A DNA stretch of 32,000 bases from Methylorubrum extorquens (GTDB lineage: Bacteria > Pseudomonadota > Alphaproteobacteria > Rhizobiales > Beijerinckiaceae), in NCBI GenBank assembly GCA_900234795.1, contig LT962688.1:1770001-1802000 (forward strand), written 5' to 3'. Each line of letters starts with the position of its first letter. Positions within the stretch are counted from its first letter, which is position 1. The position numbers and the translations under genes are program-made. The notes beneath the pieces are model-generated. The model ran no database searches and was not told where the DNA came from. It saw nothing but the letters and a program-made list of their open reading frames with translations. Positions 992-28,774 of this stretch are shown piece by piece.

Positions 992-1282
992 GATGCTCTT
1001 CGCTCTCAACCCGTCTTCCGCCGGCTCCTCCGCGTGCCCCGCGAAAACCGGCGAACCTGTGTACCCGCTGAAACGCAGAACGCAACGCGGGGACGGGGCG
1101 CAGGACCCGTGCCCGCTGGCCGCGTGCCTCGAGGGAGGTTGAACTCGCCGTTCTCCTTCCGGTCCTCCCCGCCGCGAAACGGCCTCATTCCAAGCGCCCG
1201 AAGCCGGCAGTATCGGCGCCTTGTCCCTTGCATGGGGTGCCGCTCGCGGTGAGTGAATGAAGGACCGGTTCGGGCGGCGCGG

Positions 1283-2452
1283 ATGACGCAGATCGAGCGC
1301 TACATATTCAGGATCGCGCTCGGGGCCTTCCTCACCTGCCTGATCGGCCTCACCGGCACGATCTGGGTGACGCAGGCCCTGCGCGAACTCGACCTCGTCA
1401 CGGCCAAGGGGCAGACGCTCCTCGTCTTCCTGTTCATCACCGCCCTGTCGCTGCCGACGCTGATCACGGTGATCGCCCCGGTCGCCCTGTTCATCGCCTG
1501 CGTCTACGCGCTGAACAAGCTCAACGGCGATTCCGAGCTGATCGTGATGTCGGCCGCCGGCATGCCGCCGCGCCAGTTGCTGCGCCCCTTCGCGACCCTG
1601 GCCTTCGCGATCAGCGTCGTGGTCGCCTTCCTGACGATCCAGGTGATGCCCTCCTCCTTCCAGGAGCTGCGCGACGTGCTGACCCGGGTGCGGGGGGATT
1701 TCGTCGCCAACGTCGTCAAGGAGGGCCAGTTCACGGCGCTCGACAACGGCATCACCTTCCATTTCCGCGAGCGCGGCGCCGACGGCTCGCTCCAGGGCCT
1801 GTTCATCCAGGACAAGCGCGAGGCCGGCAAGGCGGTGGTCTACCTCGCCGAGCGCGGGCGCGTCAGCGAGGTCGATGGGCAGACCTACCTCGTGCTGGAA
1901 AAGGGCAGCATCCATCGTCAGCAGAAGGACAGCCGCGATTCCTCGATCGTGAGTTACGAGCGCTACGCCGTCGATCTCGCCGCCTTCACGCCGCCGGATT
2001 CCGAGACGGTCTACAAGCCGCGCGAGCGCTCGACCATGGCGCTGCTCTTCCCCGATACGGGCGAGGGCTATTACCGCCTGCAGAAGGGCCGCTTCCGGGC
2101 CGAACTCCACGACCGGCTCTCCGCCTGGCTCTACCCGCTGGCGCTCGCCTTCATCGCCTTCGCCGCTCTGGGCGATCCGCGCACCACGCGCCAGGGCCGG
2201 GGCTTGGCCGTGGCCGGTGCGGTCGTGGGCGTGATCGCATTGCGCATCGCCGGCTTTGCCGCGAGCAGTGCGGCCGTGCGCAGCCCCGGCGCGGTGGTGG
2301 CGATCTACGCCGCGCCGCTCGGGGCGATCGCCCTCTCCTGCCTGCTGATCTTCGGCGGCGCCCGCACTCGCGCGATGAACGAGTGGTTCGGCCGGCTCGG
2401 TCGGAGGCTCGCTGGCAGCCTGCGGCGGCGCCCGCTCGCCGGACGGGCCTGA
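1283..2452 (+). CDS. lptF: LPS export ABC transporter permease LptF (YjgP/YjgQ family)
   Basis: The track ORF is 1253-2452. I prefer the ATG at 1283 ([16 protein letters not shown]...), which matches the typical LptF N-terminus. The protein has multi-pass TM segments flanking a periplasmic domain. It is followed by a paralogous permease and lptD. Confidence 0.85.
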
Positions 2453-2462
2453 GGGTGCCGGC

Positions 2463-3551
2463 ATGCTGATCGGAGCGACCCTCGGCCGCTACTTCGCGTG
2501 GCGCTTCGTGCGCACCATTCTCGGCGTGTTCCTCACCGTCTTCGCCCTGGTCTACACCCTCGACTTCGTCGAGCTGCTGCGTCGGGCGGGCGACGCGGAG
2601 GGCGCCTCGCCGGGACTGATGGCGCAGCTCGCGCTCTACCGCACGCCCGCTGTGGCCGAGAGCGTGCTGCCCTTCGCGGTGCTGTTCGGCTCCATGGCCG
2701 CCCTGCTCCAGCTCTCGCGCAAGCTCGAACTCGTGGTGGCGCGGGCCGCCGGCATCTCGGCGTGGCAGTTCCTCCAGCCCGGCGCCTTCGTGGCGCTGGC
2801 GATCGGTGCGCTCGCCATCGGCGCCTACAATCCCCTGTCCTCGGCGCTCAAGCAGCGCTCCAGCGAGATCGAGGCGAAGATCTTCGCCAAATCCACCAAG
2901 GCCGGCACCGGCAAGGACCTGTGGCTGCGCCAGCGCAGCATCGATGGGCAGGCGATCATTCGCGCCGAGACGGCGGTCGAGGGCACGACCACGCTGGCCG
3001 GGGTCACCGTCTTCCAGTTCGACGAGGCCGGCGCGTTCGCTGCACAGCTCGAGGCGGCGCGGGCGACCCTGCACGACGGCTGGTGGGAGTTGCGCGATGT
3101 GCGCGTTCTCACACGCGATGAACCGCCCGAGAGCCACGAGGTCTACCTCGTCGCCTCGACGCTCGATCCGAGCCAGATCCGCCAGCGCTTCACCCCTCCG
3201 GAATCTGTGCCCTTCTGGCAACTTCCGGAGACCATCGCACGCCACGAGCGGGCCGGGCTGGATGCCACGCGCTACCGGCTCCAGTACGATGTGCTGCTGG
3301 CAACGCCCCTGCTCTACCTCGCGATGGTCCTTGTGGCGGCAACGGTTTCCTTAAGGTTCTTCCGCTTTGGTGGTGTCGGAAAACTGGTGCTCGGCGGGGT
3401 GAGCGCGGGCTTCGTGCTCTACGTCGCGCGGCAGGTCATGGAGGGCCTCGGCGCGTCGGGGATGGTCGCGCCGACAGTGGCGGCATGGTTCCCGGCCGTG
3501 GTAGGAAGCTTGCTCGGTACGCTCACGCTTCTCTACCAGGAGGACGGCTGA
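2463..3551 (+). CDS. lptG: LPS export ABC transporter permease LptG
   Basis: A 362-aa ORF starting [18 protein letters not shown]..., with the same YjgP/YjgQ architecture as the upstream gene. It lies 10 nt after the lptF stop and directly upstream of lptD. Confidence 0.85.
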
Positions 3552-3584
3552 TGCACGGTTGTCCGGGTCGGGACGGGTTCGGTC

Positions 3585-6230
3585 GTGCAAGGGACTATCG
3601 TGATCGGCGTGCAGGGGGCTGCACAGGGTTCGAGGGACGCGTTGCGTAAGGTCGCCGACATCGCGATCACGGTCTCCATGGCCGCACTGCTGACGGCAGC
3701 CTACGGGCTCGCCGCGCCGCGCGCCCATGCCCAGGCCGGACTGGAGAAGCTCGCCGGCTCCAAGCCCGGCGAGAAGGGCCAGCGCCTGCTCGTCGAGGCC
3801 GACGAGCTGATCTACGACAACGACCGCAACACCGTGACCGCGCGCGGCAATGCCGAGCTGCATTACGGCGCGCGCACGCTCCAGGCCGACCGGGTGCGCT
3901 ACGACCGCGGCACGAGCCGCGTCTTCGCCGAGGGCAATGTCCGCCTCACCGACGAGACCGGGGCCCTGGTCACCGGCGAGCGGATGGAGCTGACCGACGA
4001 CTTCAAGAACGGCTTCGTCGAGGCCCTGCGCATCCAGCAGACCGTCGTGATGAAGGGCGAGACGGTGCGCACCCGCATCTCCGCCCCGCGTGCGGAGCGA
4101 ATCGCCGGCGAGCAATCGAGCTTCGACTACGCGACCTACACCGCCTGCGAGCCGTGCAAGGACCATCCGGAGACGCCGCCGCTCTGGCAGATCAAGGCGG
4201 CCAAGATCATCCACAACAATGAGACCCACACGATCAGTTACGAGGATTCGAGCCTCGAAATCGGTGGGATCCCGGTTGCTTACCTGCCCTATTTCGAGTC
4301 CGCCGACCCGACCGTGAAGCGCAAGACCGGCTTCCTGACCCCGCGCTTCATCACCTCGACCCCGCTCGGCAGCGGCGTCGCGACCCCGTACTTCATCAAC
4401 CTCGATCCGAGCTACGACCTGACGATCACGCCGGCCTTCGTCTCGCGCCAGGGCGTGCTGGGCCAAGCCGAGTTCCGCCAGCGCCTCGACAACGGCAGCT
4501 ACAATCTGCGCCTGTCGGGCATCTTCCAATCGACGCCCTCGGCCTTCCTGCCGGGGCCGCTGGGAGCCGCCGACCGCGAGTTCCGCGGCTCGGTCGAGAC
4601 GCGCGGGCGCTTCTTCATCAACGAGCACTGGCGCACGGGTTGGGACCTCGTCGGCGTGACCGACAAGTGGTTCCTCGACAACTACCGCATCCGCAACCAG
4701 AGCATCACCACCGACTATTTCCGCGAGGCGGTGTCGAGCGCCTACCTGATCGGCCAGGGCGACCGCTCGTGGTTCGAGGCGCGCGGCTACTACTTCAAGG
4801 CCCTGTCGAGCTTCGACTGGCAGAAGGAGCAGCCCGTCGTCCTGCCGGTGATCGACTACGACAAGCGCATCAATGGGCCGGGCAAGCTCGGCGGCGAGGT
4901 GCGGTTCGAGGCCAACGTCACGAGTCTCAGCCGCGAGGCGACCGACTTCCAGGGCATCCCGCGCACGGGCAGCTACCTGTTCGCCCCGAGCGTCAACGGG
5001 ATCAGCTATCCGCTCTACGAGACCTGCACCACCTTCGTGCGCGACCGCTGCATCGTGCGCGGTTTGGGCGGCGTCGACACGCGGCTCTCGGCCCAGGTCT
5101 CCTGGCGCCGCAGCTTCATCGACGATTTCGGCCAGGTCTTCACGCCGTTCACCTATCTGCGCACCGACGCCTTCTTCGTGAACCCGAGCCGCTCGGGCTT
5201 CCAGAACGCGCTGGTGAACAACATCACCACCGTCGATGACGGCTTCTCCGGCCGCGTCATGCCGGCGATCGGCCTCGACTACCGCTATCCCTTCGTCGCC
5301 GATTTCGGCGGGCTCGGCGTCCATACCCTGGAGCCGATCGCCCAGGTGATCGCCCGGCCCTCCGAGACCCGGATCGGCCGGCTGCCCAACGAGGACGCGC
5401 AGAGCCTCGTCTTCGACGACACCTCGCTGTTCGAATGGGACAAGTTCTCCGGCTACGACCGGGTCGAGGGTGGCGTGCGGGCCAATCTTGGCGCGCAGTA
5501 TTCCGTCGTGACCCCGTCGGGCTGGTACGCCAACCTGATGTTCGGCGAGTCGATCCAGATCGCGGGCGTGAACTCGTTCCGCCGCGGGGATCTGGCCAAT
5601 GTCGGCCTCGATTCCGGCCTGGAGAACCGCCGCTCGGATTTCGTGGGCCGCTTCCAGCTCTCGCCCAACCAGAACATCAGCTTCATCAGCCGCGCCCGCT
5701 TCGACCAGCGCGACTTCGCCGTGAACCGGTTCGAGACCGGCGTAACCGCGCGGTTCTCGCCGTTCCTGCCGCTCGAAACCTCGCTGTTCTACTCGTTCTA
5801 CGAGGCGCAGCCGGCGCTCGGCTTCGCCCATCGCCGCGAGGGCGTGACGGCCTCGGCCACCTACCGCATCACCCCGAACTGGTTCGTCACCGGCTCGGCG
5901 CTCGTCGACTTCACCCGCTACCTCGACACCCGCGACACCTTCGCCGACCTCTACACCGCCTATCTCACCAACCCGGTCGGCCTCGCCCCGGTCTACAGCA
6001 GCCCCGGCCTGACCTACCTCTCCGGTCTGAGCCTCGGCGGCGGCTATCAGGACGAGTGCACCACGGTCTCGCTGAACTACATCGTCTCGCCCATCGCCAC
6101 CGCGATCGGCGTGCGCGAGCGAAACCAGACCGTGCTGCTGCGCCTGGAATTGAAGACTTTGGGCGAGGCGGACCTGCGCCAGAACGTCAGCAGCTCGACC
6201 ACCGCCGACGGTATCGCCTCGGTGCGCTGA
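3585..6230 (+). CDS. lptD: LPS-assembly outer-membrane protein LptD (OstA/Imp)
   Basis: An 881-aa ORF with a signal-like segment (ITVSMAALLTAAYGLAAPRAHAQ). It has an OstA-type N-terminal domain (LLVEADELIYDNDRNTVTARGNAELHYG...RVFAEGNVRLTD) and a long beta-strand-rich C-terminal region. The exact start is uncertain: GTG 3585 or downstream starts. Confidence 0.9.
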   Translation: MQGTIVIGVQGAAQGSRDALRKVADIAITVSMAALLTAAYGLAAPRAHAQAGLEKLAGSKPGEKGQRLLVEADELIYDNDRNTVTARGNAELHYGARTLQADRVRYDRGTSRVFAEGNVRLTDETGALVTGERMELTDDFKNGFVEALRIQQTVVMKGETVRTRISAPRAERIAGEQSSFDYATYTACEPCKDHPETPPLWQIKAAKIIHNNETHTISYEDSSLEIGGIPVAYLPYFESADPTVKRKTGFLTPRFITSTPLGSGVATPYFINLDPSYDLTITPAFVSRQGVLGQAEFRQRLDNGSYNLRLSGIFQSTPSAFLPGPLGAADREFRGSVETRGRFFINEHWRTGWDLVGVTDKWFLDNYRIRNQSITTDYFREAVSSAYLIGQGDRSWFEARGYYFKALSSFDWQKEQPVVLPVIDYDKRINGPGKLGGEVRFEANVTSLSREATDFQGIPRTGSYLFAPSVNGISYPLYETCTTFVRDRCIVRGLGGVDTRLSAQVSWRRSFIDDFGQVFTPFTYLRTDAFFVNPSRSGFQNALVNNITTVDDGFSGRVMPAIGLDYRYPFVADFGGLGVHTLEPIAQVIARPSETRIGRLPNEDAQSLVFDDTSLFEWDKFSGYDRVEGGVRANLGAQYSVVTPSGWYANLMFGESIQIAGVNSFRRGDLANVGLDSGLENRRSDFVGRFQLSPNQNISFISRARFDQRDFAVNRFETGVTARFSPFLPLETSLFYSFYEAQPALGFAHRREGVTASATYRITPNWFVTGSALVDFTRYLDTRDTFADLYTAYLTNPVGLAPVYSSPGLTYLSGLSLGGGYQDECTTVSLNYIVSPIATAIGVRERNQTVLLRLELKTLGEADLRQNVSSSTTADGIASVR

Positions 6231-9127: not shown

Positions 9128-10633
9128 ATGTCATCGACGGTTTCAACCGCCCGCGGGCGGTTCGGCTCGACTTGGTTCGCCAACTCGTTCGCCAATCCTT
9201 GGGCCGACATCCTCTCCGGCATCGTCGTCGCGCTGGCCCTGATCCCGGAGGCGATCGGCTTCTCGGTGATCGCCGGGGTCGATCCGAAGGTCGGGCTCTA
9301 CGCCTCGGTCGTGATCGCCTGCGTCATCGCCTTTGCCGGCGGGCGCCCGGCCATGATCTCGGCCGCCACCGCCGCCACGGCCGTGGTGATGGTCGATCTC
9401 GTGCGCGACCACGGCGTCCAGTATCTGTTCGCCGCCACCATCCTGATGGGCGTGTTCCAGATCCTGGCGGGGCTCGCCCGGCTCGGGCGGCTGATGCGCT
9501 TCGTCTCGCGCTCGGTGATGACCGGCTTCGTCAACGCGCTGGCGATCCTGATCTTTTTAGCGCAGCTGCCCGAACTCACCGGCGTGACCCCGGCCACCTA
9601 CGGGCTGATCGCGCTGGGGCTCGCCATCATCTACGGCTTCCCCAAGCTCACCCGCGTGGTGCCCTCGCCGCTCGTCGCCATCGCCGTGCTCACCGCGCTG
9701 ACCGCGTATCTCGGGCTCGACGTGCGCACCGTCGCCCATCTCGGCGCGCTGCCGACGGCCCTGCCGAGCTTTGCCCTACCGGACGTGCCGCTGACCTTCG
9801 AGACCCTGCGCATCATCCTGCCCTACTCCGCGACGCTCGCCGCGGTCGGCCTGTTGGAGAGCCTGCTCACGGCGCAGATCGTCGACGACATGACCGATAC
9901 TGGCAGCTCCAAGAACCGCGAATGCATGGGCCAGGGGCTCGCCAACATGAGTTCGGCCGTGTTCGGCGGCATGGGTGGCTGCGCGATGATCGGGCAATCG
10001 GTCATCAACGTGTCGTCCGGCGCCCGCGGCCGGCTTTCGACCCTGGTGGCCGGGAGCTTCCTCCTCGCGCTGCTGGTCCTGTTGCAGGATCTCCTGGCCA
10101 TCGTCCCGGTCGCGGCGCTGACGGCGGTGATGATCATGGTCTCGCTCAACACCTTCTCCTGGCGCTCGCTCCTGGCGCTTCGCAGCAACCCGCTGCCCTC
10201 CTCCCTGGTGATGCTCGCCACCGTCGCGGTGGTGGTCGCTACCCGCGATCTGGCCATCGGCGTGCTCGTCGGCGTTCTGCTCTCGGGCGTGTTCTTCGCC
10301 GGGAAGGTCGCGCGGATGAGCCGGATCACCGCCGAGCTGTCGCCGGACGGGCGCACCCGCACCTATCGGGTGGCGGGCCAGGTGTTCTTCGCCTCCGCCG
10401 GCAGCTTCGCCGAGGCGATCGATGTCCGCGAGCCGGTGGAGCGGCTCGTCATCGACGTGCACGCAGCGCATTTCTGGGACATCTCGGCGGTGGGCGCCCT
10501 CGACCGCGTGGTGATGAAGGCCCGCGCCGCCGGCCGAACCGTCGAGGTCGCGGGCCTCAACGAGGCCAGCGCCACCCTGGTCGAGCGCTTCGGCCAGCAC
10601 GACAAGGTGGAGGCGTCGCTGCCCGCCCATTGA
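9128..10633 (+). CDS. SulP family inorganic anion transporter with C-terminal STAS domain
   Basis: A 501-aa ORF with an N-terminal polytopic region ([19 protein letters not shown]..., [17 protein letters not shown]). The C-terminal soluble domain ([17 protein letters not shown]...[15 protein letters not shown]) is typical of STAS. Confidence 0.85.
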
Positions 10634-10798: not shown

Positions 10799-11950
10799 GT
10801 GTTTCCCTTTGACCCCTCCCGTCAGAGCCGGCGCCGCGCGAGCCGCAGCCTCACCCGCACGACGCGGCAAATGACAGGGCAACTCACGCGCTCCCTCGAG
10901 AGCGCCGCCAAATCTGTCACCAAGTCTGCCGCCAAATCTGTCACGAAGGCCGTGACCCGCTCGACCGAGCAGGCGATCCGGGAGACGCGCAAGGCGACGG
11001 TCCGATCGGTGAAGCGGACGGTCCGCGACACCGAAAAGGCGGTCGCGGCCGCCTTCACCGCGCAAGGGGCCGAGCAACGGGTCGAGGTCGCCCGCAAGCC
11101 GCCCGGCCAGTTCGTCACGGTCGATGGAATGCCGGTGCACGTCATCGTGCGCGGACGCGGCCAGCCGGTTGTGCTCGTCCACGGCAACGGCACCATGGCC
11201 GAGGATTTTGCGATCTGCGGCCTGATCGACCGGCTGGCGGCGCGCTACCGGGTCATCGCGATCGACCGGCCCGGCTTCGGCTACACGGGCCGCCCCCGCC
11301 ACCGCCTCTGGACCGCTCAGGCTCAGGCCGTGCTCCTGCACCGGGTGCTGGAACAGCTCGGCGTCGAGCGCCCGCTCCTCGTCGGGCATTCCTGGGGCAC
11401 GATCGTCGCCCTCGCCCTCGCCCTCGCGCTCGCGGCCGACGGGCGGCGCCCGTTGCGCGGACTCGTGCTGCTGTCGGGCTCCTACTTTCCGGGGCATCGC
11501 ACCGACGCGGCCCTGATCGCCCCCTTGGCCGTGCCGGGCCTCGGGGACGCGATGCGGGCCATGGTGCCGGCGAAGGTGAGCGCCTCGCTCACCGGGCAAT
11601 CGTTCCGGCAGGTGTTCTGGCCTCAACCCGTGCCGGCCCGCTTCACGGCGCGTTTCCCGATCGAGATCGCGGCGGCGGCAACGCAGTTGCGCGCGGTCTC
11701 GGAGGACGCCGCCTCAATGAACGCCGCCGTCACGGGGCTTCAGCGCCGTTACGCCGGCCTGACGCTGCCCGTCTCCATCCTGGCCGGGGACGCGGACGCG
11801 ATCGTCAAGGCCAGCGAGCACTCGGTGCGGCTGCACACGACGATCCCCGGCAGCACGCTCCGGCTCCTGCCCGGCCTCGGCCACATGATCCATTACGGCG
11901 CGCGGCTGAAGGTCGAGCGCGCGATCGACGATCTGATGAAGCTCAGATAA
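10799..11950 (+). CDS. Alpha/beta-fold hydrolase with a repeat-containing basic N-terminal extension
   Basis: The core contains VVLVHGNG, DRPGFGYT and the nucleophile elbow GHSWG, with GHMIH near the C-terminus. The start is uncertain: GTG 10799 or ATG 10871. Confidence 0.75.
   Translation: MFPFDPSRQSRRRASRSLTRTTRQMTGQLTRSLESAAKSVTKSAAKSVTKAVTRSTEQAIRETRKATVRSVKRTVRDTEKAVAAAFTAQGAEQRVEVARKPPGQFVTVDGMPVHVIVRGRGQPVVLVHGNGTMAEDFAICGLIDRLAARYRVIAIDRPGFGYTGRPRHRLWTAQAQAVLLHRVLEQLGVERPLLVGHSWGTIVALALALALAADGRRPLRGLVLLSGSYFPGHRTDAALIAPLAVPGLGDAMRAMVPAKVSASLTGQSFRQVFWPQPVPARFTARFPIEIAAAATQLRAVSEDAASMNAAVTGLQRRYAGLTLPVSILAGDADAIVKASEHSVRLHTTIPGSTLRLLPGLGHMIHYGARLKVERAIDDLMKLR
10904..10951 (+). repeat. 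24-bp tandem direct repeat x2 inside the hydrolase 5' region
   Basis: gccgccaaatctgtcac is identical at 10904-10920 and 10928-10944, and the units match at 21/24 overall. They encode AAKSVTKS / AAKSVTKA. Confidence 0.9.
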
Positions 11951-11978
11951 AGAAGGCGCAACATCTCTCGAAGCCCTT

Positions 11979-12160
11979 CAGCAGCTGAAGGTGAATTTGG
12001 CTGAGCTTTACCTCGTAAAAGAGAGCATTCCGATCTCCGAGGTTGCTTGGCTGCTAAGCGTCGAGGAAGCGCGTTCGTTCGCCCACGCCTGCAAGCGCTG
12101 GCCGGCATAACGCCACGCGAGCTGAGGTCTGTCGACGTAGAGTGTACTCAGGTGCCATGA
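11979..12160 (+). pseudogene. Decayed 3' remnant of an AraC/XylS-family regulator (second HTH)
   Basis: Translation gives QQLKVNLAELYLVKESIPISEVAWLLSVEEARSFAHACKRWPA*. Shifting one base at the stop (12108-12110) continues as GITPRELRS. Together this matches the AraC C-terminal signature (...sIsEvA..lGF.e.s.Fsr.FKRw.G.TP.e.R). There is no N-terminal part and no start codon. Confidence 0.45.
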
Positions 12161-12466
12161 GAGCAGGGTTGAGCTTGGAATGGTGCTGAGCCTGCAGACT
12201 GGGCCATGGTCGTGATCGATCACGGACTTACAAAAGTTGACCCACTCTCAGGACTCGAAGGCCCGGCAAGGTATGCTGCTCAGCTGCTGTCGCCAGAAGG
12301 TACGGTGAAGTTTCTGTAAGGCCCTATTGCTGAGCTTGCGCCGCCGACCGCCCACCCATATTCGCTTATCTAGAGTTTTTACCCCATACTGCCGGAGGGC
12401 ACGATTCTCTGAATAACTAAGCCGATGCGAATAACGCGAGCGACGACCAAACATTTGAGGTGATCG

Positions 12467-13736
12467 ATGTTCGCGATGCTGTATGTGATCGTTGATACGA
12501 ATTGGCTTTTGCTTGCTTTTTCCGCTCTTATGTTCGATCTGCCCCGCTACACATTTTCGCTCCTTTCCTGGTCATTGGTCGGCATATTCAGGAATTCGCG
12601 ACCCGGCGATAGGCGGGTCGAGGCGGCCGTGAGCGTGATCATCCCGACCTTCAATGGTGGTTCGGGGCTTGCTCCGACGATCGCCTCACTCCGCCAGCAA
12701 ACCTTGTCACCACTTGAGATTATCATCGTCGACGATGGCTCCACGGACGATACGCGTGCGGTCGCAAACCGAGCGCGCCAAGACGGCTTGGTGGACATGG
12801 TCATTTGCCACGGGACGCGCTGCGGCCGCAGTGCCGCGATCAACGCAGCAGCGAGGTTCGCGAGCGGCGATCTCCTTTTCACAATCGATGCCGATACAGT
12901 TCTTGAGCGCGACGCGATCGCACGGCTTGCTCATGCGTTCAACGATCCGCGCGTGGCCGGCGCCTGCGGCAACATCGCGATTCGCAACGAGAGCGCGTCG
13001 CTATGGACCGGGCTGCAGAGCGTCGAATATATGATGTCGATCAGCGCCGGAAAATCTATTCTCGATGTTGTCGGCGCGATTGCCTGCCTGTCCGGCGCCT
13101 GTTCGATGTACCGGCGCGATGTCTTCGCGCGGCAAGGCGGCCTTGATGTCGGCCCCGGCGAGGATCTCGAGTTCAGCCTGCGGTTACGGCGCCTCGGTTA
13201 TCGGGTCCGCTTTGTGCCAGATGCCTGGGCTGAAACGGACGGTCCGGTGGCAGCCGTCGGTCTTCTGCGCCAGCGCGCGCGCTGGGATCGCGACGCGTTG
13301 CGCATCCGCTCCATGATGTATGGAGAGCTTAGCTTCTTCCATCCACTGGAGCGACTTCCGGACACCCTCCAGCGCCTGGACTTCATCGTCTTCGATTTGA
13401 TCCCGACGATGAGCCTCCCGTTTTATTCCATGTACATTGTGATTTTGTGGACCGGCTCACGCCATCCTCTTTATTTGCGCAATATATTTTCTTTTGCTTT
13501 GGATTTCGCTTTTCAATATGGCGCTGGCGTTCGTTCTATTCAGCAGATCTCCCAGTTTTTTCAGCCTTGGAGCTGCATTTATATTCCCATTCTACCATGG
13601 AATTTACATGAAATGCGCCAGCTTATTTTCCTATTCCTCGGAAATCCTCTTCGCCACCTCGCGGTGTGATGACTACGTGCCGCCGCGCGTCCGCCGTGCG
13701 CTCTTCGCAGACGAGGTTGGAAAGGTGGTCTCATGA
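12467..13736 (+). CDS. Processive family-2 glycosyltransferase (PgaC/IcaA/NodC-like synthase); apparent +1 frameshift near 13443-13500
   Basis: A GAGGTG Shine-Dalgarno lies 5 nt before the ATG at 12467, and the N-terminus has TM helices. Motifs present: SVIIPTFNGG, IIIVDDGSTDDT, TIDADTVL (DxD), GNIAIRNESASLW...VEY, LSGACSMYRR, GPGEDLEFSLRL and QRARW (QxxRW). Track frame 12467-13669 ends in an implausible tail. The frame of track ORF 13494-13736 is open from 13443 and encodes TM-like sequence (LLLWISLFNMALAFVLFS...FIFPFYHGIY). Its TGA overlaps the ATG of the next gene. Confidence 0.8.
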
Positions 13737-14779
13737 ACGTTCGTATCAACCGCCTGGACCCGAATGTGCCGGATCCCGTCGAGAGCCGCCGGCGCGCCGC
13801 CGGGCGGGTCGTGCGCATTGCCTACGCCGTGGGCATCTTCGGCGTCCTTGGTTTCTTCGTCGTCTATTTCGGCGCACCCTTCGTCTTCCTCAGCGGTCCC
13901 GGAATCGTTTCCTCCCCGCGCCACGTGCTGTCGCTTCCCTTCACCGTGCAGGTCAGCCGCATGAACGTGAAGCCCGGCTCCACCGTGAAGGCCGGCGATG
14001 AAATCGGACAGGTGTACTCGCCCGAGCAGGAGACCATCGTCGCGGCCTACATGCGCGCGCTGTCGGATATCGCCGGCCGCAGCGCCGAACTGCGCGTCAA
14101 GGCGCGCGTAGCCGCGGAATCGCTCGAAGCGGCGCGGGCGTATCAGCGCGAAACCGAGACGGCTCTGGAACGCATCGCTGCGATGGCCAGCACGACGACG
14201 ACATTTCGCGTCCAAATTCTCCGTGAGCGCGCGCTCGCGAACAAGGACGTCATCTCGCAGCAGGCCGAGGCCGAGGAGGCCACGAAACAGCTTGTCTCTC
14301 TCGATGTGTTCAGCAAACAGATCCGCGAGCAGCTGGACGAGGTGAAGCAAAACTTCAGATCCGGTCGGGTATTCGCTCCCGTCGGTGGCATCATCTCGAC
14401 AGGACTGGCCCAGACCGGCCAGTCACTCGTCGCCGGCGCGCCGATCGCTGACATCCTCAACCCAAACGATGTCTATGTTGACTGGTATATCCCCAACGAA
14501 CGATTGATCGATCCTCGGATTGGAAATGATGTATTTGTGCTTTTCGGACACCGCCGCATTCCCGGAAAGATCACAGAGATTCTGCCCGTTTCTGCCGTAT
14601 TCGGAAGCTCACAGCAGCTCACCTTGCGGGATCGTCCGGCGACTCAAATTGCTCGCATACGTTTCACCTCTGATTCGGTAACGCCAGCCCTTAACTCTAC
14701 AGTATGCGTTCATATGCATTACAGCAAAATTTCAACAGATATCTCCCGCTCACTGATAAAGACTTGTGGCATAGATTGA
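13733..14779 (+). CDS. HlyD-family periplasmic adaptor (membrane fusion protein)
   Basis: A 348-aa ORF with an N-terminal TM anchor (IAYAVGIFGVLGFFVVYFGAPFVF) and a lipoyl-like hairpin (VKPGSTVKAGDEIGQVY). It also has a long coiled-coil segment and a beta-barrel segment (VFAPVGGIISTGLAQTGQSLVAGAPIADIL). It is ATGA-coupled to the GT2 gene. Confidence 0.75.
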   Translation: MNVRINRLDPNVPDPVESRRRAAGRVVRIAYAVGIFGVLGFFVVYFGAPFVFLSGPGIVSSPRHVLSLPFTVQVSRMNVKPGSTVKAGDEIGQVYSPEQETIVAAYMRALSDIAGRSAELRVKARVAAESLEAARAYQRETETALERIAAMASTTTTFRVQILRERALANKDVISQQAEAEEATKQLVSLDVFSKQIREQLDEVKQNFRSGRVFAPVGGIISTGLAQTGQSLVAGAPIADILNPNDVYVDWYIPNERLIDPRIGNDVFVLFGHRRIPGKITEILPVSAVFGSSQQLTLRDRPATQIARIRFTSDSVTPALNSTVCVHMHYSKISTDISRSLIKTCGID

Positions 14780-14811
14780 ATTATCTATTATATTCTCACC
14801 GAGATGTCCCA

Positions 14812-15060
14812 ATGAATATCGCGGCAGGACAATCATCGTGCCCGCTCTGTGGAGCAGAAAATTTAGAAATCACTCCAGTTCTACATCATATGATTTGCGC
14901 TTATATTGGACCGCAGTACGATTTTGCTGAATCGCCTGCCGGATACACATGCCCAAAATGCAGACGCAGTATCGTGTCGGACGACATGGCTTGCGAAATT
15001 GTTGGCGTCAGCGCGCGTTGCACGGCATGCGGCAAGGAGATGATCGTTTCGCCGTTATGA
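14812..15060 (+). CDS. Small cytoplasmic zinc-ribbon protein with three CxxC pairs (possibly TackOD1-like)
   Basis: An 82-aa protein: MNIAAGQSSCPLCGAENLEITPVLHHMICAYIGPQYDFAESPAGYTCPKCRRSIVSDDMACEIVGVSARCTACGKEMIVSPL. It contains CPLC, CPKC and CTAC plus two single Cys, with no signal peptide or TM segment. Track ORF 14704-15060 starts earlier but would overlap the adaptor gene by 76 nt. The RBS before 14812 is weak. Confidence 0.5.
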   Translation: MNIAAGQSSCPLCGAENLEITPVLHHMICAYIGPQYDFAESPAGYTCPKCRRSIVSDDMACEIVGVSARCTACGKEMIVSPL

Positions 15061-15386
15061 GAGCACGTCCCCTATTCCGGCGAACCTACGCCGAGGCGGA
15101 CCAGCCTCTCTCGGCCAGGAGCTGCCAAAGCCAACCCACCGTACGGCCTGGAAGCGGACCTTCCGGCCTTCTGCAATGGCTCGAAAGTTAGCATTTCCCG
15201 GTCGCGCTGAAGGCGCGATCAACGGTCAGGCATCACATTTATGGTTTTGCACCCACGGGGGCTTGGCTTCACAAGGACCGGCCCATGAGCGGGCCCTGCT
15301 GAAAGGCGAGCCCATAGGCGGTCGCGTCCATGCCAGAGGATGGCCGCCAACTCTGTCGCAAGACATCGCCCGGCCCGGAAGCTCGG

Positions 15387-16277
15387 TTACAGGGCGCTTT
15401 CACGCGATTGCCCCGCCTCCAGCGCCCGCGCCAGCGCCACGAACCCGGCGACCGGGATCTCCTCCGCCCGCGCCGTCTCCGGTAGACCAGCGGCAGTGAG
15501 CAGGCGGATGGGGTCGGGGGTGGCGGCCTTCAGGCTCTGGCGCAGCATCTTGCGGCGCTGGCCGAAGGCGGCGCGGGTCACCCGTTCGAGGTCGGCGATC
15601 CGGCAGGGCAGCGGCTCGGGCCGTGGGCGCAGGTGGACGACGCTGGAGGTGACCTTCGGCGGCGGCACGAAGGCGGAGGGGGCCACGTCAAACAGGATGG
15701 TCGCCTGCGTGCGCCAGCCGCACAGCACGCCGAGCCGGCCGTAATTGGCCCGGTCCGACTCGTCGGCGACGATGCGCTCGGCGACCTCGCGCTGGAACAT
15801 CAGCGTCGCCGACTCCCACCACGGCGGCCAAGCCTCGTCGCGCCTGTCCGCGCCGAGCCAGCCGGTGAGCAGTACGGTGGCGACGTTGTAGGGCAGGTTC
15901 GCCACGATCCGCACCGGCCCGTCGCCGACCAGCGGGCGCGGATCGAAGCCGACCGCGTCGGCATCGATCACGTCGAGCCGGCCGGGATAGTGTGCGGCGA
16001 TCTCGGCCAGAGCCGGCAGCGCGCGGGGATCGCGCTCGATCGCCACCACGCGCTTGGCACCCGCCGCCAGCAGCGCCCGCGTCAGCCCGCCGGGGCCGGG
16101 GCCGACCTCGACCACCGTCACGCCCTCGAGCGCCCCCGCCGAGCGGGCGATGCGGCCGGTCAGGTTGAGGTCAAACAGGAAATTCTGGCCGAGCGCCTTC
16201 TTCGGCTCCAGCCCGTGCCGCCGCACGACCTCGCACAGGGGCGGCAGGCCGTCGGTGCTCAACGCTTCGGTGCTCAT
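15387..16277 (-). CDS. rsmA: 16S rRNA (adenine1518/1519-N6)-dimethyltransferase
   Basis: A 296-aa ORF containing [23 protein letters not shown]...[16 protein letters not shown]...[11 protein letters not shown], the classic KsgA/RsmA motifs. It lies 8 nt downstream of pdxA. Confidence 0.92.
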
Positions 16278-16285
16278 CGATCGCT

Positions 16286-17335
16286 TCAGGCGCGGACGGG
16301 GAAAGGCAGGACGGTGTCCGCCGGGCGGTGCGCGAGGCGATGCGCCAGCCGCAGGGCGGCGATCAGGCTGTCTGGCTTGGCGAGGCCTTGGCCGGCGATG
16401 TCGAAGGCGGTGCCGTGGTCGGGCGAGGTGCGCACGAAGGGCAGCCCCAGCGTCACGTTCACGCCCTCGTCGAAGGCCAACGTCTTGACCGGGATCAGCG
16501 CCTGATCGTGGGTGGGGGTGAGCGCCACGTCGTAGGTCGCCCGCGCCCGCTCGTGGAACAGGGTGTCGGCCGGCAGCGGCCCGCGGATGTCGATGCCCTC
16601 GCTGCGCAAAACCGCCACGGCGGGCGCCAGCACGTCGCGATCCTCGGTGCCCATGGTGCCGGATTCGCCCGCATGCGGGTTGAGGCCCGACAGGACGAGG
16701 CGGGGATGTTCGAGGCCGAAGCGGGCACGCAGGTCGGAATGGACGATGCGCGCGGTGCGCTCGACCAAGTCTTGCGTCAGCAACTCGGGCACGCGGCGCA
16801 GGGCGACGTGGATCGTCACCGGCACCACCGCGAGGGTGTCGCTCCAGATCATCATCACCGGCAGCGGCGGCTCGCGCCCCTCTCGTGCGGCGAGTGCGGC
16901 CAGAAACTCGGTATGGCCCGGATGGGCGAAGCCGACCCGCGTCAGCACGAACTTCGCGATGGGGTTGGTCACCACGGCCGAGGCCGCGCCGGAGCGCACC
17001 AGATCGACGGCGGCGGTGATCGACTCGACGATGGCGCCGGCATTGGCCGAATCCGGCGCGCCGGGCGTGGCGATCACCTTGGCCCCGCTTGGCAGCGGCA
17101 GCACCGGCAGGGCGCGGGGAAACACCTCGCAGGCGTCGTCGGGCTCGACCTCGGCCACCGGCACCGACAGCCCGAGCCGGTAGGCGGTGGCTTCCAGGAA
17201 TTCGGGGTCGCCGATGAGCTGGAACGGCGGCACCCCCCGCTCACCCCGCAGCTGCCACGCGGCGAGCGCGATCTCCGGCCCGATCCCGGAGGGATCGCCG
17301 AGGGTGAGGGCGAGCGGTCTGTCGTCGGAGGCCAT
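16286..17335 (-). CDS. pdxA: 4-hydroxythreonine-4-phosphate dehydrogenase
   Basis: A 349-aa ORF containing [15 protein letters not shown]...GHTEFLA...GLNPHAGE...[15 protein letters not shown], which are PdxA signatures. Confidence 0.92.
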
Positions 17336-27306: not shown

Positions 27307-27740
27307 CTATGCGGCGCGATGCTCGGCGTACCAGTCGCAATGCTTCGTCAGCGGGCAGTGTGCGCATTTCGGAGTTCGGGCGACACAGATCTTCATCCCA
27401 TGCTGGATGAGCCATTCATGCGCATGGCGCTTATGGCGCGCGGGGGTTTGCGCATTGATGAGATCGGCCGCTTGCTTGGCCGAAGTCGTGTCCACGACAC
27501 CGAGACGGTTCAGGACGCGAAGGACATGCGTATCGACCGCGATGCTGTCCTGCGAGAGGGTGAAGTTCATCAGGATATCGACGCATTTGCGGCCGACCCC
27601 TTGCAGCTTTATCAGGTCATCCCGGTTGTCGGGTATGCTTCCGCCGTAGTCTTCGATGATCTGGCGGGCCATTTCCTTCAGGTTTTTGGTCTTGCGGTTG
27701 TAATGCGCGACCGGCTTGATGTGTGCGTCGTCAGATGATT
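27307..27740 (-). pseudogene. Endonuclease III / HhH-GPD base-excision glycosylase, 5'-truncated at the IS end
   Basis: Only the C-terminal ~144 codons remain: ...HIKPVAHYNRKTKNLKEMARQII...LIKLQGVGRKCVDILM...IAVDTHVLRVLNRLG (HhH-GPD). They end with the 4Fe-4S loop CVARTPKCAHCPLTKHC. About 80 N-terminal codons expected from E. coli Nth are missing, and the reading frame runs straight into the IS terminus at 27741. GC is lower here: 31 of 60 in line 27601-27660. Confidence 0.75.
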
Positions 27741-27771
27741 TGAGACGGTTTGCGGTGCTCAGGAACGGAGG
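27741..27771. repeat. IS terminal inverted repeat (orfB-proximal end)
   Basis: tgagacggtttgcggtgctcaggaacggagg aligns with the reverse complement of 29179-29210 (tgagacagattgagggtcttcacgaacggagg) at about 24 of 32 aligned columns. That includes the first 6 nt and the last 9 nt. Confidence 0.75.
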
Positions 27772-27793
27772 CTCTGGTCCATCTGGGTGAGGG

Positions 27794-28774
27794 TTAGGCG
27801 GCCTGCGCGTGATGGCGCAAGCGGCGGTGCATGAGAGTCTGGCGCTTGATCTGCGCTCGATCGCGCAGGATGGCCTCGCCACGGCCGAAGTAGACGTCGG
27901 ACGGGGTGAGGTTGCCCAGGCTCTCATGAGCCCGGACATGGTTGTAGTGCTCGACGAAGGCGGCGACCCGCGCCTCCAGCTCGCCGGGCAGGTAGGCGTG
28001 TTCGAGCAGGATGCGGTTCTTGAGCGTCAAGTGCCAGCGCTCGATCTTGCCCTGTGTCTGCGGATGGCGGGGCGCCCCCCGGATGTGGGTCATGCCCCGG
28101 CTGCCGAGCCACGTGGCCAAGTCAGCCGCGACGTAGCTCGATCCGTTGTCGGTGAGCAGCCGTGGCCGGTGTGCCACCTGCACGGGGTCGAGGCCGGCAG
28201 CCGTAAGCGCCAAGTCGAGTGTGGCGGTGACGTCGCTGGCCTGCATCGTCGTGCACAGCTTCCAAGCTACGATGTAGCGCGAGAAGTCATCCAGCACCGT
28301 CGAGAGATAGTACCAGCCCCAGCCGACGACCTTCAGGTAGGTGAAGTCCGTCTGCCACAGCTGGTTGGGCGCGGTGGTCTTGTCGCGGAACTCATCGGCG
28401 GCGTTGGCGACGATATAGGCCGGGCTGGTGACCAGATCCTGAGCTTTGAGCAGGCGGTAGACGGTGGCTTCGGAGACGAAGTACCGCCGCTCGTCGGTGA
28501 AGCGTACCGCCAGCTCGCGCGGGCTGAGTTCCGGCTCTTCCAGCGCGAGCGCGACAATCTGCTCGCGAACCTCCATGGGCAGGCGGTTCCACACCCGGCT
28601 TGGTCGCGAGGGGCGATCGACCAGAGCCTCGGGGCCGCCGCGTTGGTAGGTGTCGTACCAACGGTAGAACGTGGCTCGGGCGACGCCGAGCTTGTCCAGG
28701 GTGGCGCGCACCGGCAGGTGGGACTGCTCGACCAGCCGGATGACCTCCAGCTTCTCGGGGGCCGGGTACCTCAT
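27794..28774 (-). CDS. IS transposase OrfB (DDE/rve integrase core with its own N-terminal HTH)
   Basis: A 326-aa ORF with PVRATLDKLGVARATFYRWY (HTH). Catalytic-triad regions are LWQTDFTY, LLTDNGSSY and HPQTQGKIERWH. Confidence 0.9.
   Translation of the reverse strand: MRYPAPEKLEVIRLVEQSHLPVRATLDKLGVARATFYRWYDTYQRGGPEALVDRPSRPSRVWNRLPMEVREQIVALALEEPELSPRELAVRFTDERRYFVSEATVYRLLKAQDLVTSPAYIVANAADEFRDKTTAPNQLWQTDFTYLKVVGWGWYYLSTVLDDFSRYIVAWKLCTTMQASDVTATLDLALTAAGLDPVQVAHRPRLLTDNGSSYVAADLATWLGSRGMTHIRGAPRHPQTQGKIERWHLTLKNRILLEHAYLPGELEARVAAFVEHYNHVRAHESLGNLTPSDVYFGRGEAILRDRAQIKRQTLMHRRLRHHAQAA

Follow-up and report, generated by a model that had tools for sequence, protein, structure and literature searches.

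A horizontally acquired GT2/HlyD/TackOD1 cassette in Methylorubrum extorquens: a proposed Mxd-type exopolysaccharide operon with a broken synthase gene

A candidate synthase-dependent exopolysaccharide operon

We propose with moderate confidence that the island at positions 11951-15386 of the window (the whole 32,000-nucleotide stretch of M. extorquens DNA analysed here; Table 1) is a self-contained, three-gene operon for synthase-dependent exopolysaccharide production of the Mxd type. The cassette was acquired horizontally and carries a putative TackOD1 control part, its product would likely be exported through TolC, and it appears to be non-functional in this genome.

In the proposed machine, a minimal inner-membrane processive GT2 resembling MxdB would polymerize sugar from a UDP-sugar and pass the chain through a membrane channel that it forms itself, a feature attributed to it by family membership only because its AF2 model (pLDDT 48) is unusable. 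A single-pass HlyD-family adaptor resembling MxdC would carry the chain across the periplasm and most likely dock with an outer-membrane channel of the TolC family whose gene lies elsewhere, through which export would probably proceed. The 82 aa TackOD1 core may serve the synthase/adaptor pair in the cytoplasm as a subunit with a regulatory or accessory role, contacting the protein machine directly, and would occupy a slot that is filled in related operons by REC-TackOD1 or TackOD1-degenerate-GGDEF proteins. We infer that the product would be a polysaccharide, and likewise the sugar from which it would be built; to our knowledge, not even Mxd has a polysaccharide of established chemical structure.

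Table 1. Features of the island and its flanks (window coordinates).
Feature	Position	Strand	Basis or remark
Alpha/beta hydrolase	10799-11950	+	Left flank
AraC-type HTH remnant (C-terminal part)	11964..12133	+	Six-frame translation; two frames
Promoter-proximal leader of cassette	12290..12466	+	Similarity to M. aminovorans copy
MxdB-like processive GT2 synthase, pseudogene	12467..13736	+	PF00535; alignment to orthologues
GT2 ORF as encoded, 400 aa	12467..13669	+	Final ~73 residues are read out of frame
MxdC-like HlyD-family periplasmic adaptor, intact, 348 aa	13733..14779	+	HlyD_3, HlyD_D23
Mini-TackOD1 zinc-binding protein, intact, 82 aa	14812..15060	+	PF18551
Non-coding right edge of island	15061..15386	.	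Ends at rsmA stop
rsmA	15387-16277	-	Right flank, then pdxA

The small protein corresponds to the core of a TackOD1 domain

The last gene of the cassette had been described from its CxxC pairs as encoding a zinc-binding protein. Consistent with this description, the 82 aa protein matches positions 89-156 of the 188 in the TackOD1 profile PF18551 with 37.1 bits (cut-off 32) and carries the motifs CPLC, HMIC, CPKC and CTAC. It is cytoplasmic, without a TM segment, and its start at 14812 is backed by family members of 81-98 aa that open with MQIE. Residues C10, H25, H26, C29, C47, C50, C70 and C73 are invariant in this small-protein family, and C13 and C61 are nearly so. The AF2 model is all-beta (pLDDT 86.9), and a fold search with the protein gave no significant match, the top entry being a rubredoxin (E 0.38). 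A tblastn comparison matches it to the core of long TackOD1 proteins with E values of 1e-4 to 1e-12, and the motif HHxxCAYxGPxxDF...CPKC is common to both. Judged by sequence, the protein is the zinc-binding core of a TackOD1 domain and not an isolated oddity. It may behave unlike the long TackOD1 proteins, because only 68 of the 188 positions are covered and the REC- and GGDEF-like parts are absent.

Sister clusters on plasmids and metagenome contigs encode GT2 proteins that are 27-38% identical to that of the window over ~90% of the length. The gene preceding each of these GT2 genes, at -4 to +2 nt, encodes a full-length TackOD1 protein, a REC-TackOD1 regulator or a TackOD1-degenerate-GGDEF protein, the full-length forms scoring 134-208 bits with PF18551, and an HlyD gene follows in nearly every locus that reaches that far. 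When plasmids were searched starting from TackOD1, 15 bacterial records were recovered, with a GT2 gene adjacent in 14 of the 14 inspected. The cassette belongs to a wider, little-studied TackOD1/GT2 family, with TackOD1 beside the synthase at every bacterial locus checked, and sequence similarity indicates that all three cassette parts are homologous to those of the TackOD1/GT2/HlyD sister clusters.

Several features favour a subunit of the machine over a regulator of the operon. The zinc-protein gene is last in the operon and near-stoichiometrically spaced, the TackOD1 gene of sister clusters overlaps the GT2 start by 4 nt, as is typical of subunits, and no conserved operator or leader was seen. 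Moreover, the long proteins at the position of mxdA combine TackOD1 with degenerate GGDEF domains, and the mxdA product is reported to be a protein-binding c-di-GMP effector (PMC7666153). We therefore regard as unlikely, though still credible, that the small protein is a nucleic-acid-binding regulator of transcription or translation. That reading draws on the frequency of nucleic-acid binding among zinc ribbons, on the likening of the TackOD1 cysteine pattern to the PriA zinc insert (Galperin et al., PMC5847659), and on the status of TackOD1 as a response-regulator output domain, since many such outputs bind DNA.

A processive GT2 and its periplasmic adaptor

Profile searches confirmed the full GT2 motif set (D, DxD, ED and QxxRW) of the original prediction, here DDGS89, DAD141, GED231 and QRARW269, with 116 bits for PF00535 and 67 bits for Chitin_synth_2. 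A cellulose-synthase-type NCBIfam model gave just 29 bits. The protein lies below the cut-off of every curated equivalog model, the best partial matches being PgaC/IcaA (126 bits; cut-off 422) and NodC (113 bits; cut-off 550).

The second gene encodes an HlyD-type adaptor, as had been suggested: PF13437 (HlyD_3, 53.6 bits) and PF16576 (HlyD_D23, 49.8 bits) both exceed their cut-offs, and EmrA (4tko) is the best PDB sequence match. Conservation and hydropathy place a single TM segment at approximately residues 35-55, and the protein has a conserved cytoplasmic tail of ~30 residues. An AGGTGG-like ribosome-binding site of its own lies upstream of the adaptor ATG.

Given the NodC-like size and topology of the GT2 (415-423 aa), its partial matches to PgaC/IcaA and NodC and its chitin-synthase-type QxxEY and QxxRW motifs, the enzyme could make, in place of a long polymer, short oligosaccharides for secretion, for instance NodC-like chito-oligomers or a different signal, with the adaptor forming part of an efflux route. 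The frequency of the cassette in the legume symbionts Bradyrhizobium, Mesorhizobium and Sinorhizobium would fit such a role, but the cassette is also found in non-symbionts and many soil MAGs. This possibility seems to us quite doubtful, as both equivalog scores are far under their cut-offs, no nodA/nodB-type or deacetylase genes are linked, and the phenotype of the related mxd genes concerns the biofilm matrix (PMC3691769).

The synthase gene is disrupted in this genome

The synthase gene had been taken to be intact. Alignment to the orthologues L002 and DM4 reveals instead that the gene lacks 2 nt after position 13446 of the window relative to the intact 423 aa orthologue, and Logan assemblies from more than 20 sequencing runs share this deletion. 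The reading frame is correct for codons 1-326, after which the true C-terminus runs in another frame to 13736. The deletion replaces the conserved last ~95 residues, and with them a C-terminal motif that is conserved across the whole superfamily, while the out-of-frame remnant is altered at the family-invariant residues Q378, R386 and F387. The encoded ORF stops 63 nt short of the adaptor ATG, and the proposed overlap of this ATG with the synthase stop is found only in intact relatives. Here, the ATGA at 13733-13736 is part of the out-of-frame remnant (frame-0 ORF 13494-13736), and the earlier reading of the overlap must have crossed the frameshift.

Two more Methylorubrum lineages carry independent knock-outs of the gene, namely a nonsense codon (TAC>TAA) five codons upstream of the deletion site in M. 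extorquens DM4 and an IS insertion in M. aminovorans. The GT2 gene of the window is a pseudogene, and the copy in this genome most likely makes no product because the 2 nt deletion removes the conserved C-terminal membrane segment and tail of the synthase. Comparison of this strain with the intact lineage still gives low dN/dS values (0.14-0.37); the decay is therefore recent, and the adaptor and zinc protein may retain some function.

It is very improbable that the cassette still works here by means of an active truncated or recoded GT2, or of a +1 ribosomal frameshift that restores the frame. The catalytic GT-A domain and QxxRW do lie upstream of the break, which falls within a T-rich stretch, and the adaptor and zinc protein are intact with low dN/dS; however, the lost part contains the last membrane helices as well as the superfamily-conserved tail motif, three invariant residues have already changed in the remnant frame, the same gene has been hit in two other lineages, and there is no known frameshift signal at the break.

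Conservation of the unit and origin of the island

The three genes were expected to form a conserved unit, and a neighbourhood survey bears this out. Of the 45 genome loci that extend far enough downstream, 43 have the triad in the same order (mostly in Bradyrhizobium, Xanthobacteraceae and Mesorhizobium, and also on a conjugative plasmid of Sinorhizobium). In a metagenome search started from the zinc protein, HlyD was encoded directly upstream at 69 of 70 loci, and GT2 was present at 51 of 52. All genes are intact at the cleanly assembled loci (31/31; 415-423, 346-350 and 81-98 aa), where the GT2-HlyD junction ranges from a 4 nt overlap to ~+15 nt and the HlyD-zinc-protein junction from ~10 to 36 nt. 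Flanks vary, with no conserved neighbour besides the three genes, and the pairwise identities of the three proteins co-vary (Spearman 0.45-0.75). Four divergent small TackOD1 proteins (38-46% identical; contigs of 39-62% G+C) are also encoded downstream of an HlyD gene, one of them in a full GT2-HlyD-TackOD1 triad; at the divergent locus L067, a solute-binding-protein gene is inserted between HlyD and the small TackOD1. Chance juxtaposition of genes with no joint function in a decaying patch, which the pseudogenes beside and inside the island (AraC remnant, broken GT2) might bring to mind and which the original prediction had named as its own refutation, is decisively rejected by this strict co-occurrence despite variable flanks, extending to divergent lineages and to the permuted sister architecture.

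The foreign composition proposed for the patch is evident at several scales. Its G+C of 0.577 lies ~7 sd below that of 218 same-size windows elsewhere in the window (mean 0.689, sd 0.015, minimum 0.646), and GC3 is 0.71 for GT2, 0.71 for HlyD and 0.49 for the zinc protein, versus 0.90 and 0.92 for the flanking genes; three 60 nt counts given previously (21/60, 27/60 and 48/60) were exact on recount. The cassette is horizontally acquired, as judged from this low G+C and GC3, from its G+C of ~0.60 in Bradyrhizobium and Xanthobacteraceae, which is the same as that of the host there, and from its presence on a conjugative Sinorhizobium medicae megaplasmid.

The flanking hydrolase and rsmA genes lie where they had been placed, and the island contains no integrase, the absence of which had been noted, and no tRNA or flanking repeats. 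A decayed AraC remnant at the left edge is supported by a match to HTH_18 (E 1.3e-5, 25.8 bits), a score under the cut-off of 33.6 as expected of a fragment, but it recurs only at Methylorubrum orthologous loci and is outside the conserved cassette. Of the flanking stretches, only the leader resembles the M. aminovorans copy, which lies at a separate location (blastn identities of 78% across 67 nt and 69% across 99 nt); the leader has no Rfam match, and no sigma-70-like site was found upstream of GT2. The right edge holds no ORF with a family match, no similarity to other cassette loci and no terminator-like site. The usual PgaC/Bcs partners are indeed missing, in that neither the larger ORFs of the window nor the annotated orthologous regions include an OMF, PilZ, GGDEF, Wzx/Wzy or PgaABD-type gene.

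Comparison with known systems

Archaeal response regulators of the REC-TackOD1 type have been described, with a TackOD1 domain whose function was called obscure and whose occurrence in type IV pilus loci of thaumarchaea was noted (Galperin et al., 2018; PMC5847659). These regulators belong to the same zinc-binding family (PF18551) as the 82 aa protein but, unlike this core-only form, span the full 188 positions with five CxxC motifs and an HxxC. No GT2 gene was near haloarchaeal TackOD1 at the one locus inspected.

Unnamed TackOD1-GT2(-HlyD) clusters occur on alphaproteobacterial plasmids, from Methylocystis, Aminobacter, Phyllobacterium, Roseibium, Palleronia and Rhodobacterales, and on contigs of Sphingobacteriia (Bacteroidota). 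Compared with the window, their GT2 proteins are 31-38% and their HlyD proteins 21-28% identical, and the TackOD1 core matches with E values of 1e-8 to 1e-12. Their genes are tightly coupled, as in relatives of the window's cassette. In contrast to the window, their TackOD1 proteins are full length (417-626 aa), often REC-fused, have a degenerate C-terminal domain and are encoded upstream of GT2; some loci carry extra TolC, GalE or phosphorelay genes.

Among GT2/adaptor systems, alginate synthesis by Alg8/Alg44 likewise pairs a GT2 synthase with an MFP-like periplasmic protein, the cytoplasmic part of which bears a regulatory module, but there PilZ is fused to the adaptor, and the system also includes AlgE as its dedicated porin and a large scaffold in the periplasm. 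The Sinorhizobium meliloti bgsBA system for mixed-linkage beta-glucan resembles the window in having a GT2/MFP pair without a dedicated porin, and differs in its larger, c-di-GMP-activated BgsA, in having the MFP gene first and in lacking a TackOD1 protein.

The outer-membrane route, left open by the original prediction, can be narrowed to a degree. No TolC gene is in the window or next to ~45 loci of this cassette subfamily, but TolC-family genes are found inside two related clusters, in Aeromonas (plasmid; TackOD1-GGDEF, GT2, TolC, HlyD) and in Methylocystis (TackOD1, GT2, HlyD, hypothetical gene, TolC). In addition, the bgsBA glucan has a genetic requirement for tolC, and a tripartite assembly of GT2, MFP and TolC has been suggested for this system (PMC13438883). 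A tripartite route has also been proposed for the cyanobacterial XcsA-XcsB-TolC cellulose system (Maeda, 2018, as cited in PMC12430437), where a synthase, an HlyD-like adaptor and TolC are combined as suggested for the window, whereas XcsA is of BcsA type with a PilZ domain, an endoglucanase is a partner and a TackOD1 protein is absent.

The mxdB/mxdC genes of Shewanella, offered earlier as a lead, proved a good one. In clusters of Photobacterium, Plesiomonas and Aeromonas, the first gene encodes a full TackOD1 with a degenerate GGDEF domain and the GT2 is 27-31% identical to that of the window (E 1e-34 to 1e-39), and this order (TackOD1-GGDEF-like, GT2, HlyD) equals the published order of mxdABC. 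MxdA is reported to be a c-di-GMP effector that binds CheY3 and is the proposed activator of the machinery, and phosphorylated CheY3 is required for biofilm formation (PMC3691769, PMC7666153); the reported mxd phenotypes concern aggregation and three-dimensional biofilm structure (PMC3691769). The literature searched holds no description of a GT2/HlyD pair with this small protein. Nevertheless, the earlier statement that no characterised system completes such a pair with a protein of this kind is probably wrong for mxd, considering the TackOD1-degenerate-GGDEF proteins at the mxdA position of the sister clusters. Like the window, the S. oneidensis biofilm-matrix operon mxdABCD has a membrane GT2 (MxdB) followed by an adaptor of HlyD/MFP type (MxdC), together with a gene of its own for a cytoplasmic regulator; in the window, the putative regulator is cut to an 82 aa TackOD1 core without the GGDEF-like part, and its gene follows the adaptor rather than preceding the synthase. 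By this analogy, a TackOD1-type protein probably accompanies the GT2/MFP pair in mxd too.

Conservation and foreign origin of the three-gene cassette

The GT2 synthase, HlyD-type adaptor and zinc protein genes of the low-GC island at window 11951-15386 had been predicted to constitute a module, and gene-neighbourhood surveys reveal that this triad is indeed a conserved unit. A scan anchored on the GT2 gene, using one genome per species, yielded 47 close loci from many species of Bradyrhizobium, from MAGs of Xanthobacteraceae, and from Mesorhizobium, Ciceribacter, Phyllobacterium and Pseudolabrys. Among the 45 loci with enough downstream sequence, the triad is complete and in the same order in 43. 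All three genes are intact in each of the 31 cleanly assembled loci (products of 415-423, 346-350 and 81-98 aa), with a first junction between a 4-nt overlap and about +15 nt and a second of about 10 to 36 nt. When metagenome contigs were scanned starting from the zinc protein, HlyD was found directly upstream in 69 of 70 cases and GT2 in 51 of 52. No conserved fourth gene emerged when all flanking ORFs in 44 loci were clustered.

Four divergent short members, 38-46% identical to the window protein and carried on contigs of 39-62% G+C, all follow an HlyD gene, and one of them resides in a complete GT2-HlyD-TackOD1 triad. A metagenome contig of 40% G+C representing a divergent lineage (L067 604-1930) has a solute-binding-protein gene (SBP_bac_11, 355 aa) between HlyD and mini-TackOD1. 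Variant arrangements were also observed in a set of MAG loci (L028 8099-10780, L010 8124-8228, L012): an insertion of ~2.7 kb inside the adaptor gene in one, an adaptor gene joined to the zinc-protein gene by a deletion in another, and a GT2 gene with neither partner downstream in a third.

Features of the island and its surroundings (window coordinates)
Feature	Position	Strand	Remarks
lptF, lptG, lptD	1253-6230	plus	upstream of island
alpha/beta hydrolase	10799-11950		left flank of island
AraC remnant	11964-12133		two frames; HTH_18 E 1.3e-5
GT2 synthase	12467-13736	plus	encoded ORF 12467-13669, 400 aa
HlyD-type adaptor	13733-14779	plus
mini-TackOD1	14812-15060	plus	82 aa
rsmA	15387-16277	minus	right flank of island, then pdxA
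rsmA-pdxA	15387-17335	minus	downstream of island
IS-type transposase	27307-28774	minus	rve integrase core and HTH domains, 326 aa

The three G+C counts from which the original prediction judged the island to be compositionally foreign are exact on recount, and wider measurements bear out the judgement. The G+C content across the island is 0.577, versus a mean of 0.689 (s.d. 0.015, minimum 0.646) for 218 same-size windows elsewhere in the window. Third-position G+C is 0.71, 0.71 and 0.49 for the GT2, HlyD and zinc protein genes, respectively, versus 0.90 and 0.92 in the flanking hydrolase and rsmA. The cassette is ~0.60 G+C in Bradyrhizobium and Xanthobacteraceae, near the value of its own flanks, and stands out only in Methylorubrum; another copy is located on a conjugative Sinorhizobium medicae megaplasmid. 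We conclude that this is a self-contained mobile three-gene cassette, native to ~60%-G+C Hyphomicrobiales, that was acquired by Methylorubrum.

The island occupies an identical site in orthologous regions of several M. extorquens-group assemblies, including strain DM4, and its identity between these assemblies (~95-96%) is the same as that of the flanks. It had been described as lacking an integrase, and neither an integrase, a tRNA gene nor flanking repeats were found in or around it as marks of integration. Its borders could not be defined by way of an island-free relative because an exact look-up of RsmA returned only island-bearing contigs. The decayed AraC gene reported at the left edge is real; AraC was rejected as a conserved neighbour of the cassette because the remnant recurs only in Methylorubrum. 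Scans of the island gave no credible RNA (Rfam), no terminator-like site, and promoter-like sites at or below shuffled expectation, with none upstream of GT2. The proteobacterially common lptD...pdxA-rsmA neighbourhood is interrupted here because methyltransferase, TerB, LrgAB, SulP transporter and hydrolase genes, together with the island, lie between lptD and rsmA-pdxA. The transposase gene, with two small low-GC patches nearby (~27251 and ~29251), is separated from the island by ~12 kb and has no relation to it.

The small zinc protein carries a TackOD1 core

The third gene had been predicted to encode a small protein with three CxxC pairs, which can now be identified as the core of TackOD1 (PF18551; 37.1 bits versus a gathering cut-off of 32). 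An orthologue is named 'TackOD1 domain-containing metal-binding protein' at NCBI. A complete TackOD1 domain has 188 positions with five CxxC motifs and an HxxC, and its function has been described as obscure in the only paper on TackOD1 that we found (PMC5847659). The 82-aa protein matches only positions 89-156 of the 188 and carries three CxxC, one HxxC and one lone Cys. By this profile match, it represents a core fragment rather than the complete domain. Residues C10, H25, H26, C29, C47, C50, C70 and C73 are invariant, with C13 and C61 nearly so, and this set is compatible with two metal sites. A confident AF2 model (pLDDT 86.9) is all-beta, and a Foldseek comparison of this model with the PDB gave nothing significant (best match rubredoxin, E 0.38).

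A profile search with the zinc-protein alignment recovered close relatives only, among the matches listed. An exhaustive representative profile search returned ~54 clusters of short proteins and, after these, several hundred proteins 300-600 aa in length. Ten of these long proteins were scanned, and all contain TackOD1, full-length in nine, with REC or kinase domains in two. The window protein aligns to the core of long TackOD1 proteins with tblastn E values of 1e-4 to 1e-12, and shares with them the signature HHxxCAYxGPxxDF...CPKC.

The longest ORF for the zinc protein (window 14704-15060, 118 aa) overlaps the adaptor gene by 76 nt, and an M. extorquens orthologue is annotated by NCBI as 117 aa. 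This long form probably reflects a mis-annotated start, with the true start at 14812, because family members in other genera begin at the MQIE position. Synonymous divergence of the gene between the window (14812-15057) and L002, a Methylorubrum locus with an intact GT2 allele (10348-10593), is 0.32 (a small count, 14 synonymous changes), versus a several-fold lower 0.04-0.13 for neighbouring genes in the same strain pair. Local recombination at the zinc-protein gene is possible.

A recent frameshift disrupts the synthase gene in the window strain

The window GT2 protein has a GT-A domain (PF00535; 116 bits versus a cut-off of 23.3) and the D, DxD, ED and QxxRW motif set that had been claimed for it (DDGS89, DAD141, GED231 and QRARW269), as well as a chitin-synthase-like QxxEY. 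It falls short of the PgaC/IcaA PNAG synthase equivalog (TIGR03937; 125.8 bits versus 422.3, catalytic domain only), of the NodC equivalog (TIGR04242; 113.4 versus 550, with 26.5% identity to a plasmid nodC) and of the BcsA/CelA cellulose synthase model (TIGR03030; 29.2 versus 699), and has no PilZ match. The absence of the usual PgaC partners was also correctly noted, as pgaA, pgaB and pgaD were not found near the cassette. Sequence searches of the PDB with the cassette proteins gave distant GT2 and EmrA matches only. An AF2 model of the intact GT2 protein, built from a shallow alignment (12 sequences, 72-82% identity), has a pLDDT of 48, too low for use.

Intact GT2 orthologues are 423 aa long, and their stop codon overlaps the adaptor start codon as ATGA. 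The original prediction placed this overlap in the window, where it does not hold; the gene there carries a frameshift that had gone unnoticed. Because 2 nt are missing after position 13446, the ORF shifts frame there and stops at 13669, and the sequence for the original C-terminus persists as a remnant in another frame, up to 13736. Hydrophobic segments at 319-358 and additional predicted C-terminal helices of the intact orthologue are out of frame in the window copy. The lost segment contains the final membrane helices as well as a tail motif that is conserved superfamily-wide; the C-terminal tail of the GT2 reads DDfVPPRVRRAL. A one-off assembly error does not explain the deletion, since Logan assemblies from more than 20 sequencing runs give this 400-aa product too. 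Although the remnant is already changed at the family-invariant Q378, R386 and F387, dN/dS for the window strain relative to the intact lineage remains at 0.14-0.37, and therefore the knock-out is recent. Long-term decay of the island is unsupported by these values.

Independent lesions are found in related strains. M. extorquens DM4 carries a TAC>TAA knock-out five codons upstream of the deletion site, and the M. aminovorans copy (L057 3720-6674), at a different chromosomal site, has a truncated adaptor and a GT2 gene interrupted by an IS5-type element (with DUF4096 and DDE_Tnp_1). Just upstream of this copy is an NAD-dependent epimerase gene. These repeated knock-outs suggest that, once transferred into Methylorubrum, the cassette is dispensable or costly. 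Five metagenome GT2 homologues (P0009, P0010, P0014, P0019 and P0026) of 399-401 aa are 66-68% identical to the product of window 12467-13669. They switch frame at differing positions in the T-rich C-terminal region and all finish with the alternative-frame tail that the broken window gene also has, reflecting either recurrent real frameshifts or homopolymer sequencing errors.

The adaptor has a conserved cytoplasmic tail

Assignment of the second gene product as an HlyD-type adaptor agrees with two Pfam models (HlyD_3, 53.6 bits versus 22.2; HlyD_D23, 49.8 versus 30) and its best PDB sequence match is EmrA. It falls below the cut-off for the RND-type MFP subfamily (TIGR01730; 56.2 versus 94.9) and, as anticipated, the cassette has no linked gene for an RND or ABC pump. 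The protein has one TM segment and a cytoplasmic tail of ~30 residues (window 13733-13830; RLDPnvPDPvESRRrAAGRxVR) that is at least 90% identical across genera. Because the conservation of this tail far exceeds that of the periplasmic body in the HlyD alignment, it suggests a docking site.

Related clusters pair TackOD1 with GT2 and HlyD

A plasmid search with the intact GT2 protein uncovered a sister GT2 family with 32-38% identity across more than 90% of the length. In sister clusters a TackOD1 gene directly precedes GT2 (-4 to +2 nt) and an HlyD gene directly follows it, except on the Aeromonas plasmid, where the order is TackOD1-GGDEF, GT2 (across the record origin), TolC and HlyD.

TackOD1 architectures encoded upstream of GT2 in related clusters
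Hosts	TackOD1 form	Length (aa)	Extras
Methylocystis, Aminobacter, Phyllobacterium, two Rhodobacterales	full-length TackOD1	417-465	TolC nearby in Methylocystis; GalE in Rhodobacterales operons
Roseibium, Palleronia	REC-TackOD1	565-626	histidine-kinase and Hpt genes surrounding the cluster; also a cyclase gene in Roseibium
Photobacterium, Plesiomonas, Aeromonas	TackOD1-degenerate-GGDEF	451-460	TolC inside Aeromonas operon

The GT2 proteins of the gammaproteobacterial clusters are 27-31% identical to the window GT2 (E 1e-34 to 1e-39); the downstream HlyD is confirmed by Pfam in Photobacterium, and in Plesiomonas and Aeromonas the adaptor carries an HlyD-family annotation. Sphingobacteriia contigs carry TackOD1 followed by GT2, and one further contig carries REC-TackOD1 followed by GT2. 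A plasmid search starting from TackOD1 gave 15 bacterial records, with GT2 adjacent in all 14 that were inspected, and four haloarchaeal records, with no GT2 nearby in the one inspected. On two Rhodobacterales plasmids (L161 and L162 8022-9033), galE (UDP-glucose 4-epimerase) overlaps the HlyD end by 4 nt in the TackOD1-GT2-HlyD operon, and an AraC-family regulator is located ~3 kb upstream.

The combination had been taken for an orphan, and our literature search likewise found no paper combining a GT2, an HlyD protein and a zinc ribbon. The view of the cassette as a foreign unit stands, but its orphan status does not, given that homologous TackOD1/GT2/HlyD clusters exist. Judged by these homologies, the cassette is better regarded as a reduced and permuted representative of a broad TackOD1/GT2/HlyD (Mxd-type) family.

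A possible control module for synthase-dependent secretion

Exopolysaccharide systems of the synthase-dependent type play a central part in forming biofilms and in colonising roots and leaves. To our knowledge, each well-known system of this type has its own dedicated regulator in the cytoplasm (PilZ, PgaD or BcsE-type proteins, for example). In the mechanism we propose, GT2 would polymerise and translocate a glycan, and the adaptor would pass the chain towards a TolC-family channel encoded elsewhere. Mini-TackOD1 would act in the cytoplasm on the synthase/adaptor pair, filling the regulatory slot held elsewhere by PilZ, PgaD and MxdA-type proteins. The motifs and best partial matches are a weak hint that the synthase may belong to a HexNAc-polymerising clade. 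GalE in two sister operons and the epimerase beside the M. aminovorans copy hint, also weakly, at a 4-epimerised UDP-sugar. In the window strain the machine is most likely dead because its synthase is truncated.

A tentative reading, possible rather than probable, is that TackOD1 serves as a dedicated cytoplasmic control module of MxdB-type synthases across bacteria, with the 82-aa protein as its minimal synthase/adaptor-binding zinc core. If true, a synthase-dependent secretion machine could be gated without a PilZ or GGDEF-type c-di-GMP receptor, and the output domain of REC-TackOD1 response regulators would receive its first functional assignment. The significance is limited in that the local copy is a pseudogene and the role in this subfamily is a proposal drawn from sequence. 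Nevertheless, TackOD1 gains a consistent genomic partner, an MxdB-like GT2 with an HlyD adaptor, in at least four architectures (the mini form, the full-length form, and fusions to REC or to a GGDEF-like part). Its role becomes a testable hypothesis in tractable hosts (Bradyrhizobium, Sinorhizobium, Methylorubrum and Shewanella), with a prediction for what REC-TackOD1 regulators control.

No TolC-family gene was found in the window. The TolC genes in the Aeromonas cluster and in that of Methylocystis, where TolC is two genes downstream of HlyD, indirectly support a TolC outer-membrane step. So do the requirement of tolC for the product of the GT2/MFP pair bgsBA, for which a tripartite complex was proposed (PMC13438883), and the similar proposal for cyanobacterial XcsAB-TolC (PMC12430437). 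Our findings thus add genomic support to this recently proposed GT2-MFP-TolC export route.

The closest parallel is the Shewanella oneidensis mxd biofilm-matrix operon, whose mutants lose aggregation and three-dimensional biofilm structure (PMC3691769). The gammaproteobacterial clusters, with a GGDEF-like regulator, GT2 and HlyD, have the published order and content of mxdABC, and the window cassette has adjacent GT2 and MFP genes homologous to clusters of this layout. However, the Mxd-type layout has a regulator gene with a degenerate GGDEF domain (a c-di-GMP effector) upstream of GT2, whereas the window cassette contains no GGDEF-like sequence and has the TackOD1 part alone, downstream of HlyD. 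MxdA is reported to be a c-di-GMP-binding effector that interacts with CheY3 and has been proposed to activate the machinery, and phosphorylated CheY3 is required for biofilm formation (PMC7666153). By analogy, REC-TackOD1 fusions would be the fusion counterpart of the CheY3-MxdA contact, only if MxdA has TackOD1.
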